Assembly: GCF_964204865.1 (NCBI RefSeq)
Contig: NC_135260.1
Coordinates: forward strand, 20,646,001-20,710,000
DNA length: 64,000 nt
Reading direction: 5' to 3'
Source of the DNA: Styela clava
Lineage: Eukaryota
The notes beneath the pieces are model-generated. The model had not been told where the DNA came from. It ran no database searches and saw only the letters and a program-made list of their open reading frames with translations. Positions 44,656 through 50,300 of this stretch are shown in pieces (within the stretch, counting starts at the first letter, position 1; each line of letters starts with the position of its first letter). The position numbers and the translations under genes were made by a program.

Positions 44656-47346
44656 TTTATGTCTCTTAAATTGTGTAATATTATTATTTATTTATTTCTA
44701 TATTTTAATTTTATAAAATCCAATTAAAAAAAAATAATAAAAAAATAAGTCTTCGGTTGATCTCGCAAAACTAGAGCGAAGCGCATTCTAGTTCTATTTT
44801 TATGTATAGCGGGGATACCGTACTACAGAATCAGACCATGTAATGATATTGAGATCGCCACGCAAAATATAGAGTCAGGCGATAAAATATGGCAAAATGC
44901 ATATGAACGATTTCGATAAGACACCTTGGGTAATGTTCTGTGGTCGTTAATGTTAGCTTTTTACTGATACGTTGACCATATTATTCAATCCACGTTTGAC
45001 TATCGTGGTCCATATCAAATAACACAAACAAATCAATTAACACGAGCAAATCCAAAATAGCACAGTATATATAAATACCATAATATAAGCAAATATAACA
45101 GCTAATATGAATCAAAAAACAGTCAAAATTAGCACGGTGTGGTAGGCTGGTCTATTAGCGTTTCAAATTTAACAAGTAACGAATCATGATCAGGCGAATA
45201 TGCAAGAAAAATCGACGCAAATAATTGATTTCTGTTAAATCCCTTATGAAATGCGTTAATTTAAATACAGTAGTTGGAAGTCTATCGTCAAAACGAGAGA
45301 GCCTTCAATTGACCCCGTAGAAATGAGAGAGAAGTGCACTCTACGTACGTCGTACAGTAACGTTATATCTCTGTCTGTGGATATGCGCGATCCCTGCAAA
45401 TAAGAATAAGTTCTTTGTTAACCAAATCTGCCAACTAGACACTAAGGCAGACAGGGTACCTACTGCAGTAATTGAGTATTGGAGCTGTTGAAGGACCCAA
45501 ATTTCGTGAATTTATCGAGAAAGAAGAATAGAAGTCTACGGGTGCTCTAGTCAGCAATCTGGAAGCGGTACTCCCACAGGCAGACAGCGGTAAGTTTCCG
45601 ACGTGTTTACAGAAGGCTGTTTGCTAGGGCTAGGAATTTCAGGTAAAACACTTTAACCGGTTAACCTCAGCGTGACGTTTGACGTAATAATTTTAACTTT
45701 GTCACAATGGTTACAAAGCACTTTCGGGTGATCGTATTCCACTATCGCTCAAAAATATTCACTGCAAGAGATATTCAGCATGCTTCGGACATCTGGAAGT
45801 ACTGAAGTATTTTAGTAAAACCCGAATTCGTTATTACATCCCATTTCCAGATTTATGTGACAAATTTTCAGTGTTCGATGGCAAATTATACTCTGAGATA
45901 TCATAAAGAAAAACAGCATCAACTGCGCACTTGTTGGATGACATTAAATATATGATTTTGCAATAAAATCGTGAACAATATATTTCGACCGAAAACTAAA
46001 TTTATAATTGTCAAATTTTCATAATTCTGTAATCAGCAATCTTGGTACTTCAATTATTGTTCACATTTATTGGGTCCTTACCAATACAGTTCTGCAGTGA
46101 TATTCTCTTGAATTAACTGCCACAGGAGATAAATTTGCGATGACGTAATCATTTTTGAAAAAATTGTACATCATAAAGATGATTTGTACCTAAGATGTCA
46201 GTTAACGCTTAAAATAAATCATAACCGTTGTCCATCTAAAATCAGTTAACCATTACCAGTCTTTCCTAATCCAGTAATTAAGGGTGCCCAAACTGATTCC
46301 AGCGTATTAATAAAACCGGTTTCAGTGAGATGCCATTACTGCAGACCTGCGCCAAGTCAGTCCAGCAGTCAGTTTTCAGTTGCAAATTCAAGGACAATTT
46401 CAAATTCAAAGAATTTTAATTTGAAAATAGGATTCTAAAATAATGACATTTGAAGTTGAAAAAGTGTTCAGCCTTTGAGGGGCCAAACTGCAGAAAACCG
46501 ATTTAAAGGAAAGTTTTTGTAATAACTCAAATTGCACTAACACCCATCCAGCCATCATTCCTGTATTTTTCAATTTCATCTTCGACGAGGATGATGAATC
46601 TTTCGCTGATACAGTGATAGCATTGTAACTTTCCAGCTTTTCGTTAAGTCAGGATTGTTTTTGTCACATGATTCACATAAAATTCAATGCTGTAAGAATT
46701 ATGGCAATATTTACGCCAGAACTGAAATTTCTGCAAAGCTATATATTACTGGTCTATTTGCTGATCACTGAATGATAGATAGATCTGTAGATAGTTTATT
46801 TTCAAAACTCTCTTCTCTTTACATCTTGCTGTCTTGTGAATGTTTCTGTTTCATACTGCAGTCAAACTTGATCATCAGTGACTGTCAACCTCAAAATCAA
46901 TTTCCCATCACAGTGTCTGTATTAATAGTGTATCTTACATATACATTATTATATCCGACATAATACTCATTACTCAATTTACATAATACAACCAAAGACT
47001 CAACTACAACCAAATGAATATGCCTAAATGATCTATCAGTATCTATTTCCCCTAACACTGCAAACACCTAGCCCTAAATGTCCTATAAATCTAGATGTAT
47101 TTAGGATTTTCATATTTATTCCGGTGTTGAAGCCGATAACACGGCCTAATCATTTGGCCTACCGCAGCATCTCGTTTGGTTACCATCCTAATATGACGAA
47201 CTAAAGAATCATTCCTTATTTCAGGATTCAGAAATTGGTCGTTGGAAGTCAATGACAGAATACATCTCACATTTTTTGCTTTACAAATACAGCAATCTCA
47301 ATCACAAGCAAGTTGGTAAGCCTTCATCCATTGTACCAATTTGAAA

Positions 47347-50300
47347 ATGTCTGCTCAAGCTCAAATGAAAGATCTTTTGGATCAGTTGATGGGGACACAA
47401 CGAGATGGTGAGAAAATTTCTATTGTTACATAGTACATTTTAAAACGTTTTGTTCTTGTTTTTTGTTTCAATATTGATGGTGTTTCATTTTTAACCTTTT
47501 CATGTCAAGGTGACTTATACATTTACGACATACTATGTCAACAACGCGGAGAAATTAAATGAAAGAATAGCTTGCAGCTGCCGTGAGTGCAAAATGTTCA
47601 TAAATTAGAGCGACTGTGTATTGTTTTATTTAAAATATACCATATATATATGAATGATCTATTATATATTTTTTGCGATCACTCCATTTTTTCTCAAGTA
47701 TGATATGTTCAGTCAAGTCAAATTCATCAGTCAAATTAGCAATTGGTAGTTACATACCAAGGACCAAATAAAGTTGTCTGCTCATATTTTCGATACTATT
47801 ACAAGACAGTTTTCTTGACTTATAGATAGTGAGTATTTTTTTATTTTAACTAACTCGAGCAACAGAAACTACAGTACAAAGTAAGGATTGGGTAAGTTGT
47901 ATCTTTACAAGAAATGATCCTGGCAGCACACTCGGATTTTCATCTAATAGAAGAAATTGATACTGAGATCCGTGTGTATGTTTAAGCTTGTTTTCAAACT
48001 TTCTTGTGTCCTCTCTGTCAATTATTTTGTTTACAGACTTATATTTTTATCATGTCAGTTTTGGATAAATTTGATTTAAGTTGAAGTTTATCAATTTATT
48101 GTCCTAAACCTAAAGTAGGACAATATGGGAAGCTCTTTTGCAAAAGCAGCATTAATAACTGTTACTTCAAGACCTTTTTGTATCAATTTTAATTTTGCAG
48201 TCTACAGTCTACACATTAATAAATAAATTTAAATTGAAAGTATTGGCATTTGGTTTTCACACATTTTAAACTGATTTTAAATTTTTTCGATTATCATTAT
48301 TATCAACTTATTTATGTTCTATCAGGTGTTGACACCGGTGCAGTAAGTTTCAGAGATGATGAAGTCTGCAAAACATTTCTTCTAGGATGTTGTCCCCATG
48401 AAATTTTATCTGGAACGGTATGATCTAATGATAATTATTGGTACTGTAATATATGTGATTATTTTGCATGTTGCAAAGTAGATCTCTATTAAGACGGTAA
48501 AGGTTGCATAGACATAGACATCGGGAAAATATACCAATATTTTTGGAATTGAAAATGCTGTAACCATTTCTAAAGTTTTTAAAGAGAGTTTTTTATTTGG
48601 TTTCATTTAGACCAAATTTTGACTTTCTAATTTTTTTCTCCAGAGAGCAGATATTGGAAGTTGCAGAAAGATTCATGATCTAGCATTAAAGGCAGACTAT
48701 GAAATGGCGACGCAAAGCAAAAAATATTACTATGAATTTGATGTAAGCTTGTTTAGTTTTGTCTTTGCCAATTATTACATGTTTTCTCTTTCTTTCATTT
48801 GTTGATTATTTTGTTTTTTAGTCATTCGATCATCTGACACGATTTGTTGCTGAAACAGATCAGAAGATTGAGATATCAAAGAAGAAATTAGCTGAACAAC
48901 AGGCTGAAATAAGTGCAGAAGTAAAAGCAAAGGTTTGTTCAATTTATTTTCTGATTGATCAGTATTCATGGCATCAACAAGCTTGCTTCATTGTTAAAGT
49001 GTATTTTGAAATTAACGTGGGGACTGTTAAACAATTTTGTACGTACCTCCTATATGGTGATGGTTATTTTGTGAAGTGGTTCGTAAACTGTGATACACTT
49101 GACCAGTGGGTATCAAACTTTTTAGCGCCCCCTTTTTGGAAATTGTCAAATAACTCGCTAACAATAAGCTACAAATAACAGATAGTAAGGTTCCACGCTA
49201 AGGATAATAAATATACAAGCACAACATCGCTTTGCAATTTCTAATCCAGGGGTTCCCAAGCTTCTTTCAGGACGACCCCAAAAACAAAGTGTCCTGTGTC
49301 AATATATATTTTTTTTTATGAAACTTTAGAGCTTCTTTCACTGGACTTATGAGTTTGGTCATGTGGTGGTATTAAGTAAAATAAGCTAAATCCAAACAAT
49401 GATGTCATAATAAGCACCTACATTTTCTATAGCATAAGCATAGAGCGGATGCCAATGGGCCTGTTTTACAGTTAGCAATTTAACATGGTTTGTCAAATCT
49501 TGGATGTTTTGTACATCCATCCTCTACCATACCTCAGCGACCCCATGACCTGTTTGCGACCCTACCTATCACTCCGACCCAATTTGGGGTTGCGACCCCT
49601 GGTTTGGGAACCCCTGCTCTAAACAATAAAGATATGTAAATATCTGAAATAAGGGCGAGATCAAATCTGACAATTATTTTTAATTAGCTTCACACCTCTC
49701 AAAAAACTGTCTATATGTCCCTTGTGGGGTTTGCCCCACCATTTGCGAACCACTGCACTAGACTAACTAAAGCATTGCAAAATATCAACTCATTTTCTAA
49801 AAAATTACACCATATCTGCCAGCAATTAGAGCTTGACATTAATCAAATTCATCAATTTGCATATCATCGAAATTTGTGTAATGAAATATTTTTGTCTTTC
49901 ATCTAGGAAGCTAAAGTTCAGGAGCTCACAGATCAAATTGGTAAATTATTGGCAAAAGCTGAACAACTTGGCTCTGAAGGTGAAGTTGATGAAGCTAAGA
50001 ATGTTCTAGAAGAAGTTGAAAAAGTCAAAGATCTTAAAAGAGAAGCAGAGGTTTGTATCTCATTTTGGGTTGTTTGCTAGGATTCAAGGGTACTTCGGTG
50101 GTGAGTGTTATTACGAAATCCAGCTTTAGCAGTCCCTTGAACCCTAGCAAACAACCAAAAATCATCCCTAAACCTATATTTATTAGTCTATAATTTACAG
50201 GATGCATACAGAAATTCCATGCCAGCTTCTACTTATCAACAACAAAAGCTGAGAGTTTGTGAAGTCTGTTCTGCTTATCTTGGTTTACATGATAATGATA

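Follow-up and report, generated by a model that had tools for sequence, protein, structure and literature searches.

The closest described systems are regulatory exons of vertebrate LUC7 genes, described here from the available sections of the cited papers. The human LUC7L PTC exon and LUC7L2 exon AE2 have a common donor of Balance +3 that is required for regulation, and AE2 replaces the N-terminal helix of human LUC7L2 (Kenny et al. 2025, PMC11842720). Work in human cells and Arabidopsis mutants demonstrated the model of right- and left-handed donors, and loss of LUC7L2 is a driver of myeloid neoplasms (PMC11842720). A 71-nt poison exon controlled by PRPF40A lies between exons 1 and 2 of mouse Luc7l, and the introns on either side of it can also be retained (PMC11648925). 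LUC7L splicing is also linked to NMD in non-mammalian vertebrates (PMC3176834). In the available sections of PMC11842720 and PMC3176834, the regulatory exon is traced only within vertebrates, and the available part of Daniels et al. (2021, PMC8078730) holds nothing on the exon. Decoy exons of other genes often bear several competing splice sites (Parra et al. 2018, PMC6097662).

The window, which is the whole stretch of 64,000 nucleotides of Styela clava DNA analysed here, contained a Luc7 gene on its + strand. The gene matched Pfam PF03194 (LUC7), and the translation of exons 1 to 3 was identical, letter for letter, to the S. clava RefSeq protein P0122. The zinc-finger-2 exon showed 84-86% identity to vertebrate LUC7L and LUC7L2, which places the gene in the LUC7L/LUC7L2 subfamily and agrees with the original prediction, in which the sequence had been assigned to intron 1 of LUC7L. 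A second LUC7 locus was found on C10 of the same genome. It was 37% alike in the zinc-finger-2 exon, and we take it to be of the LUC7L3 type. Judged by sequence comparison, the window gene is the sole LUC7L/L2-type gene found in the genome. Intron 1 comprised 918 nt. The donor of exon 1, ATG/GTGAGA, had a Balance of 0, and the terminal three bases of the exon (47405-47407) formed an out-of-frame ATG. The features of the locus are given in Table 1.

Table 1. Features of the Luc7l locus between coding exons 1 and 3, in window coordinates.
Feature	Coordinates	Strand	Evidence
Luc7l coding exon 1, 61 nt, N-terminal helix	47347..47407	+	joined to exon 2 in 7/8 runs
First 102 nt of intron 1, spliced out when acceptor 47509 is used; branch-like TTAAC and a T tract ahead of the AG	47408..47509	+	joints in X1, X4, X8, X9
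Poison cassette, 73 nt, about 300 nt upstream of the motif cluster	47510..47582	+	acceptor in 4/8 runs; RefSeq isoform X1
Right-handed donor GCC/GTGAGT, Balance +3, putative Luc7l-sensing site	47580..47588	+	sequence scoring; RefSeq isoform X1
Rest of intron 1 downstream of the cassette, 743 nt, unspliced in contigs	47583..48325	+	contigs in 8/8 runs, into exon 2 in 7/8
Pseudo-donor ATA/GTGAGT, Balance +2, with a T tract behind it; not seen in use	47826..47834	+	sequence, contigs
Motif cluster: branch motif, two CAG, donors 47881 and 47892; no use seen; candidate decoy	47845..47898	+	motifs, contigs, shuffles
Luc7l exon 2, 92 nt, start of zinc finger 1	48326..48417	+	sequence, Pfam, RNA contigs
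Luc7l exon 3	48644..48742	+	sequence

The gene was present in 13 runs, nine of which were guessed to be RNA. Eight of these nine (X5 was left out) and none of the four DNA-like runs were used. They originated from three studies and were analysed as contigs only. Exons were joined at GT..AG in all eight, so these runs contain spliced RNA. Contigs lose rare forms and show the presence of a form, not its absence. The joint between exons 1 and 2 was found in seven of the eight runs. Exon 1 was also joined to 47510 across a 102-nt GT..AG intron in four runs (X1, X4, X8 and X9), which represented all three studies. Contigs using this acceptor at 47509 kept the downstream part of intron 1 unspliced. 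Unspliced contigs ran over 47583 as well as over the motif cluster in every run, and those of runs X6 and X7 also crossed the border of exon 1. The introns downstream of intron 1 were bridged by joints. Unproductive splicing of intron 1 of the ascidian Luc7l is supported by these observations.

The segment that starts at acceptor 47509 is a cassette between coding exons 1 and 2, and its use breaks the canonical frame. A TGA at 47560-47562 becomes codon 38 of that frame, both with inclusion of the cassette and with retention of the rest of the intron. The cassette ends at an intronic donor that was missing from the original prediction, GCC/GTGAGT at 47583. When Balance was scored by the rule of PMC11842720, this donor was the only one with +3 among the eight canonical donors (-2 to +1) and the four intronic donors of the gene. 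Splicing was seen at the acceptor end in four of eight runs and at the donor end (joint 47582-48326) in none of the eight among the joints listed; use of the donor is implied by the RefSeq model X1 alone. The S. clava RefSeq cluster had four members, equally divided between the canonical form and isoform X1 (P0001/P0121). The isoform X1 protein consists of the terminal ATG of exon 1, 47510-47582 and exon 2; a 73-nt cassette with its end at the 47583 donor is thus modelled by an independent pipeline. Three ATGs and an upstream ATG come before its start, so that a role as a regulatory RNA is more probable for isoform X1 than one as a protein. The cassette is already in RefSeq as an isoform; in the literature searched, which covered openly accessible papers and part of their supplements, it is undescribed as a regulatory exon outside vertebrates, and no regulatory exon of an invertebrate Luc7 gene was found there. 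Variants in 47509-47591 numbered zero against 1.9 expected, which is not significant (P 0.15). Folds of the cassette regions had z values of 0.67-1.13 against shuffles. U1 duplex energies, calculated with an assumed U1 end, did not separate used from unused donors, and the measure was dropped.

Like the human LUC7L PTC exon and LUC7L2 AE2, the ascidian cassette lies between exons 1 and 2, carries a premature stop and has a donor of Balance +3; the donor likeness is one of Balance class. The modelled alternative protein of the ascidian loses the N-terminal helix, as does LUC7L2 with AE2. Two differences were apparent. The ascidian has one gene where human has the two paralogues LUC7L and LUC7L2, which points to auto- rather than cross-regulation, and its steady-state contigs show downstream retention, not inclusion. 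In length the cassette (73 nt) is close to that of mouse Luc7l (71 nt), for which inclusion and retention of the flanking introns are both unproductive, as proposed here for the ascidian. Inclusion (53%) exceeds retention (12%) in mouse N2a cells, whereas inclusion was not seen in the ascidian contigs (PMC11648925). By analogy with these systems, the cassette is likely the invertebrate counterpart of the human LUC7L feedback switch, likely autoregulatory and inherited from early bilaterians.

The explanation that we consider the most probable, with fairly good confidence, is that exon 1 is joined to exon 2 or, alternatively, to the stop-bearing acceptor 47509, that the cassette with its GCC/GTGAGT donor is likely a Luc7l-sensing switch, and that the cluster at 47845-47898 likely serves as an unspliced decoy. 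With abundant Luc7l, U1 snRNP loaded with this protein would bind the right-handed donor at 47583 and define the cassette. This definition would pull the exon 1 donor onto the near acceptor, 102 nt away. Two fates would then be open to the captured transcript: inclusion of the cassette, which would make it an NMD target, or a stall in which the 743-nt downstream intron stays in place. Full protein would come from neither. With scarce Luc7l, or with the presumed LUC7L3-type paralogue of C10 prevailing, the cassette would be skipped. The weakest step of the proposed mechanism is one in which retention would be favoured by unproductive binding of U1 and U2 to the right-handed pseudo-donors at 47829 and 47892 and to the branch motif. 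For the cluster taken by itself, a decoy role in aiding retention has somewhat less than an even chance of being correct; a chance origin is almost as probable, and a spliced microexon is unlikely. The original prediction had proposed negative feedback by donor competition within a microexon. Unproductive splicing of intron 1 was borne out, and mammalian-type feedback is the best reading of it; the microexon with its paired donors was not supported as the switch.

Luc7 loci of other animals were obtained from a metagenome scan, which yielded 11 loci: two with an intronless gene, six transcript-like, one without exon 1 and most of intron 1, and two with a whole intron 1. Searches for further loci gave none among 95 candidate stretches in genome contigs and none among 329 in viral contigs. 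The two whole introns measured 2355 nt (L016) and 1840 nt (L017). Together with L013, a spliced record described below, these loci were nearest to proteins of molluscs and other spiralians according to summed tblastn scores. The donor pattern CCGTGAGT (CC/GTGAGT), which had been fixed on the window sequence ahead of obtaining the foreign loci, was present in intron 1 of both (shuffle P 0.0115 for L016 and 0.016 for L017), a sample of two loci that may be related to each other. The genomic background held two occurrences in 320 kb. A looser +3 pattern was not rare in L016 (P 0.32). Upstream of CC/GTGAGT, a T-rich AAG/G acceptor was located at a distance of 50 nt in L016 and 69 nt in L017. The resulting candidate exons, hand-picked from sequence, would be frameshifting in L016 and stop-bearing in L017. 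The cassette bodies of the window and of L016 and L017 were not clearly alike in global alignment (P 0.037 and 0.019, against a null in which the common donor and T tract could still add to the score), and their lengths differed (73, 50 and 69 nt). Short elements of homologous introns that were kept across animals while their surroundings diverged are also described for the SF3B3 poison exon and the ultraconserved ENOX1 pseudo-5' splice site (available parts of PMC11162794 and PMC13100119). LUC7 is absent by name from the main text of PMC11162794, as far as available, and LUC7L2 appears in a single human row among the searchable supplementary files of PMC13100119.

The protein set comprised 371 Luc7 proteins, of which 302 include the beginning of zinc finger 1 and 277 have the canonical exon 1. 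The remaining 25 had other N-termini; three of them were dropped (two start inside exon 2 and one is partial) and 22 were kept. Arginine replaced the canonical glycine at the exon 2 joint in ten of the 22, from eight species: an ascidian, lamprey, opossum, oyster, an annelid and three decapods. An arginine at this position implies C or A as the last base of the upstream piece, as in the ascidian cassette. Glycine, the residue that reading through the end of the intron would produce, was found in the other 12. This tally, drawn from automatic gene models, hints at intron 1 cassettes elsewhere. In three decapod genera (P0312, P0318 and P0325), a near-identical alternative stretch precedes exon 2 and ends in Pro-Arg; crustaceans likely carry a conserved intron 1 cassette, to judge from these models. 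A start at the methionine of exon 3 was found in 33 of the 371 proteins, many of them mollusc and arthropod RefSeq variants with several transcripts each. Starts of this kind would be expected from intron 1 variants that disrupt the canonical frame.

The two intronless loci (L008:5343-6281 and L015:5786-6724) hold a tunicate-like Luc7l as unbroken coding sequence on contigs of 17 and 25 kb, nearest to the proteins of Clavelina and Phallusia. They are probably retrogene replacements that lost intron 1 together with its switch. With an intronless coding sequence, the switch would be dispensable there. The record L013 was spliced from exon 2 on; in place of exon 1 it had, at 1-270, intron-like sequence with a T-rich CAG at its end. 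It fits intron 1 retention in another phylum, although it could also be of genomic origin.

Taken together, the comparison suggests, at somewhat less than an even chance, that the Luc7l feedback switch is older than the protostome-deuterostome split and that its CC/GTGAGT donor, through which Luc7l-loaded U1 would sense the level of Luc7l itself, was kept for more than 550 million years, unlike the exon body. The ascidian form would capture exon 1 and stall the intron, aided by the decoy, and the switch would have been lost in the intronless tunicates. If true, the invertebrate counterpart would date the feedback loop to early bilaterians and would show that selection keeps the handedness of the donor rather than the exon sequence. 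The 918-nt intron would offer a compact natural reporter for the model of right- and left-handed donors, and RefSeq isoform X1 is suggested to be a mis-read regulatory RNA.

The motifs on which the original prediction was built were all found in the cluster: the branch motif TAACTAAC at 47847-47854, two CAG acceptors ending at 47865 and 47874, and the donors AAA/GTAAGG at 47881 and TGG/GTAAGT at 47892. The ATA/GTGAGT donor placed near 47829 was located at exactly that position. Balance was 0 at 47881 and +2 at 47892. Against 2000 dinucleotide-shuffled versions of intron 1, TAACTAAC had a P of 0.018, a branch-YAG-donor cluster one of 0.011 and three GTRAGT one of 0.016; the respective values in a genomic background of 320 kb (16 stretches, both strands) were 0.017, 0.008 and 0.006. 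A looser branch pattern gave P 0.066 in intron 1. The cluster patterns were defined post hoc, after seeing the sequence, and for this reason the cluster is unusual to a modest degree, not strikingly so.

A real switch in the cassette combined with a chance cluster that has no role is the alternative to be weighed most seriously, and we regard it as a substantial possibility, although below an even chance. The post hoc patterns favour it, as do a comparable branch-YAG-donor cluster in intron 4 at 49158, the lack of conservation in L016 and L017, and an ordinary density of variants (one seen, 1.3 expected). The cluster also has no stable fold: a hairpin concealing the branch motif by pairing with the donor at 47829 folded no more stably than shuffled sequence (z 0.71 and 1.43) and was rejected, so that, compared with the SF3B3 and ENOX1 systems, no stable stem conceals the branch motif in the ascidian. 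Against mere chance, intron 1 holds three GTRAGT in 910 nt, compared with two in the 2342 nt of introns 2-8. L017 likewise has four GTRAGT in intron 1 (P 0.0125), though L016 has only two (P 0.34). Human LUC7L2 also has a conserved pseudo-donor, which, from its coordinates, we place in intron 1. This pseudo-donor is conserved among vertebrates and shares the same seven letters with 47890-47896, a motif that is near consensus (PMC13100119, searchable part of the supplement).

The decoy role kept in our preferred explanation was compared with the known decoys of SF3B1, OGT, ARGLU1 and DDX39B, in which a cryptic multi-site cassette is located in a retained intron of a splicing factor and the downstream part is partially retained (PMC6097662, sections available). 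The ascidian segment 47826-47898 likewise lies in a retained intron and offers several competing splice sites. Known decoys are strongly conserved and located mostly in introns of more than 1 kb (PMC6097662, sections available), whereas the ascidian intron is shorter and its cluster showed neither conservation in L016 and L017 nor a leaky junction.

The switch as first proposed, a microexon of 6-26 nt, was not recovered. Its arithmetic was correct, with 15 or 6 nt in frame and 26 or 17 nt causing a frameshift and a TAA early in exon 2. The contigs of all eight runs passed unspliced through the cluster, and no joint or inserted letters were found at 47865, 47874, 47881 or 47892 in any of the eight runs among the joints listed. 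The microexon was also absent from all four RefSeq members of this gene. An insert of two or five residues between exons 1 and 2 occurred in none of the 276 canonical Luc7 proteins measured (273 normal, three with long inserts). Conservation of intron 1, proposed as a check, was not observed for the TAACTAAC branch cluster in either of the two foreign loci with a whole intron 1, both from distant animals. The pyrimidine share at -20..-4 was 0.47 and 0.35 for the two CAGs, compared with 0.47-0.88 for the eight canonical acceptors of the gene and 0.76 for acceptor 47509. One and two AGs lie upstream of the two CAGs, and none upstream of acceptor 47509. The branch A is just 12 or 21 nt from the AGs of the cluster. 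A spliced microexon would be expected to have a pyrimidine tract between branch point and AG; at 47866-47891 the T tract instead precedes the branch motif. Both CAGs are poor acceptors. The proximal donor carries a G>A variant at +6 in run X9. A microexon at 47866/47875-47880/47891, real in a minor cell type or stage and in frame or poison by donor choice, is accordingly unlikely, even if the near-perfect branch motif, the strong distal donor and a cluster modestly above chance (P about 0.01) speak for it. Rare forms are lost from contigs and poison forms would be hidden by NMD. Neuronal transcriptomes typically contain microexons (PMC11648925, sections available).

Splicing noise or unfinished pre-mRNA with a slow first intron could also account for the use of acceptor 47509 and the cover of the intron, and we hold this to be rather improbable. 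The library types of the runs are unrecorded, none being on record as RNA, and contig depths, a poor measure by which isoforms are not ranked beyond a rough hint, varied widely. For runs X1, X4, X8 and X9, the contigs joining exon 1 to 47510 had depths of 100, 10.6, 66 and 59, and those with the canonical joint 471, 338, 115 and 64, with the extremes in X4 (10.6 to 338) and X9 (59 to 64). Recurrence of one acceptor in all three studies and the bridging of the other introns argue against noise, as do the recurrence of the donor motif in distant animals and the same pattern in mouse (PMC11648925, sections available). The least probable alternative is a working isoform read from the terminal ATG of exon 1 into exon 2 with the N-terminal helix replaced: the 73 nt keep this ATG in frame, the Owenia model P0290 has the same build and AE2 of human LUC7L2 provides a precedent (PMC11842720, sections available), yet the ATGs ahead of its start, a frame that is not kept in L016 or L017, peptides unlike one another, and contigs with retention instead of inclusion make it very unlikely.

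Several minor observations were made at the locus. A repeat origin of 47480-47920 was rejected, as the segment had one genome match within the limits of the search. Intron 4 contains a repeat at 49148-49700, which includes the cluster at 49158 and is fitted in part by more than 200 contigs per run. Within 47810-47834, an acceptor-like TTATAG has its last base at 47825, three bases ahead of the 47829 donor, and would allow a 3-nt in-frame exon; no joint for it near 47826 was present among those listed for the eight runs. The retained part of intron 1 holds two AATAAA (47767 and 48218), and the pseudo-donors between them might suppress early cleavage. One contig of run X1 ends at 48229, just past the AATAAA at 48218. 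Intronic polyadenylation was set aside, as the seven other runs reach exon 2 and the signal comes from one study.

Upstream of exon 1, an acceptor-like site ends at 47224 (window 47017-47241), where a contig of run X7 joins after 1148 foreign letters. A low-depth contig of run X4 (47017-47224) ends at the same site. The site is likely a spliced-leader trans-splice site with an outron; spliced-leader trans-splicing is common in tunicates (PMC11155486, sections available). In exon 3, three linked base differences at 48709-48712 were present in all four runs of study P3, at the codon where two RefSeq versions disagree (Thr or Ser). On the minus strand, 52405-53157 comprises a single open frame of 250 codons with TPR repeats, positioned tail to tail with the 3' end of Luc7l near 52240.
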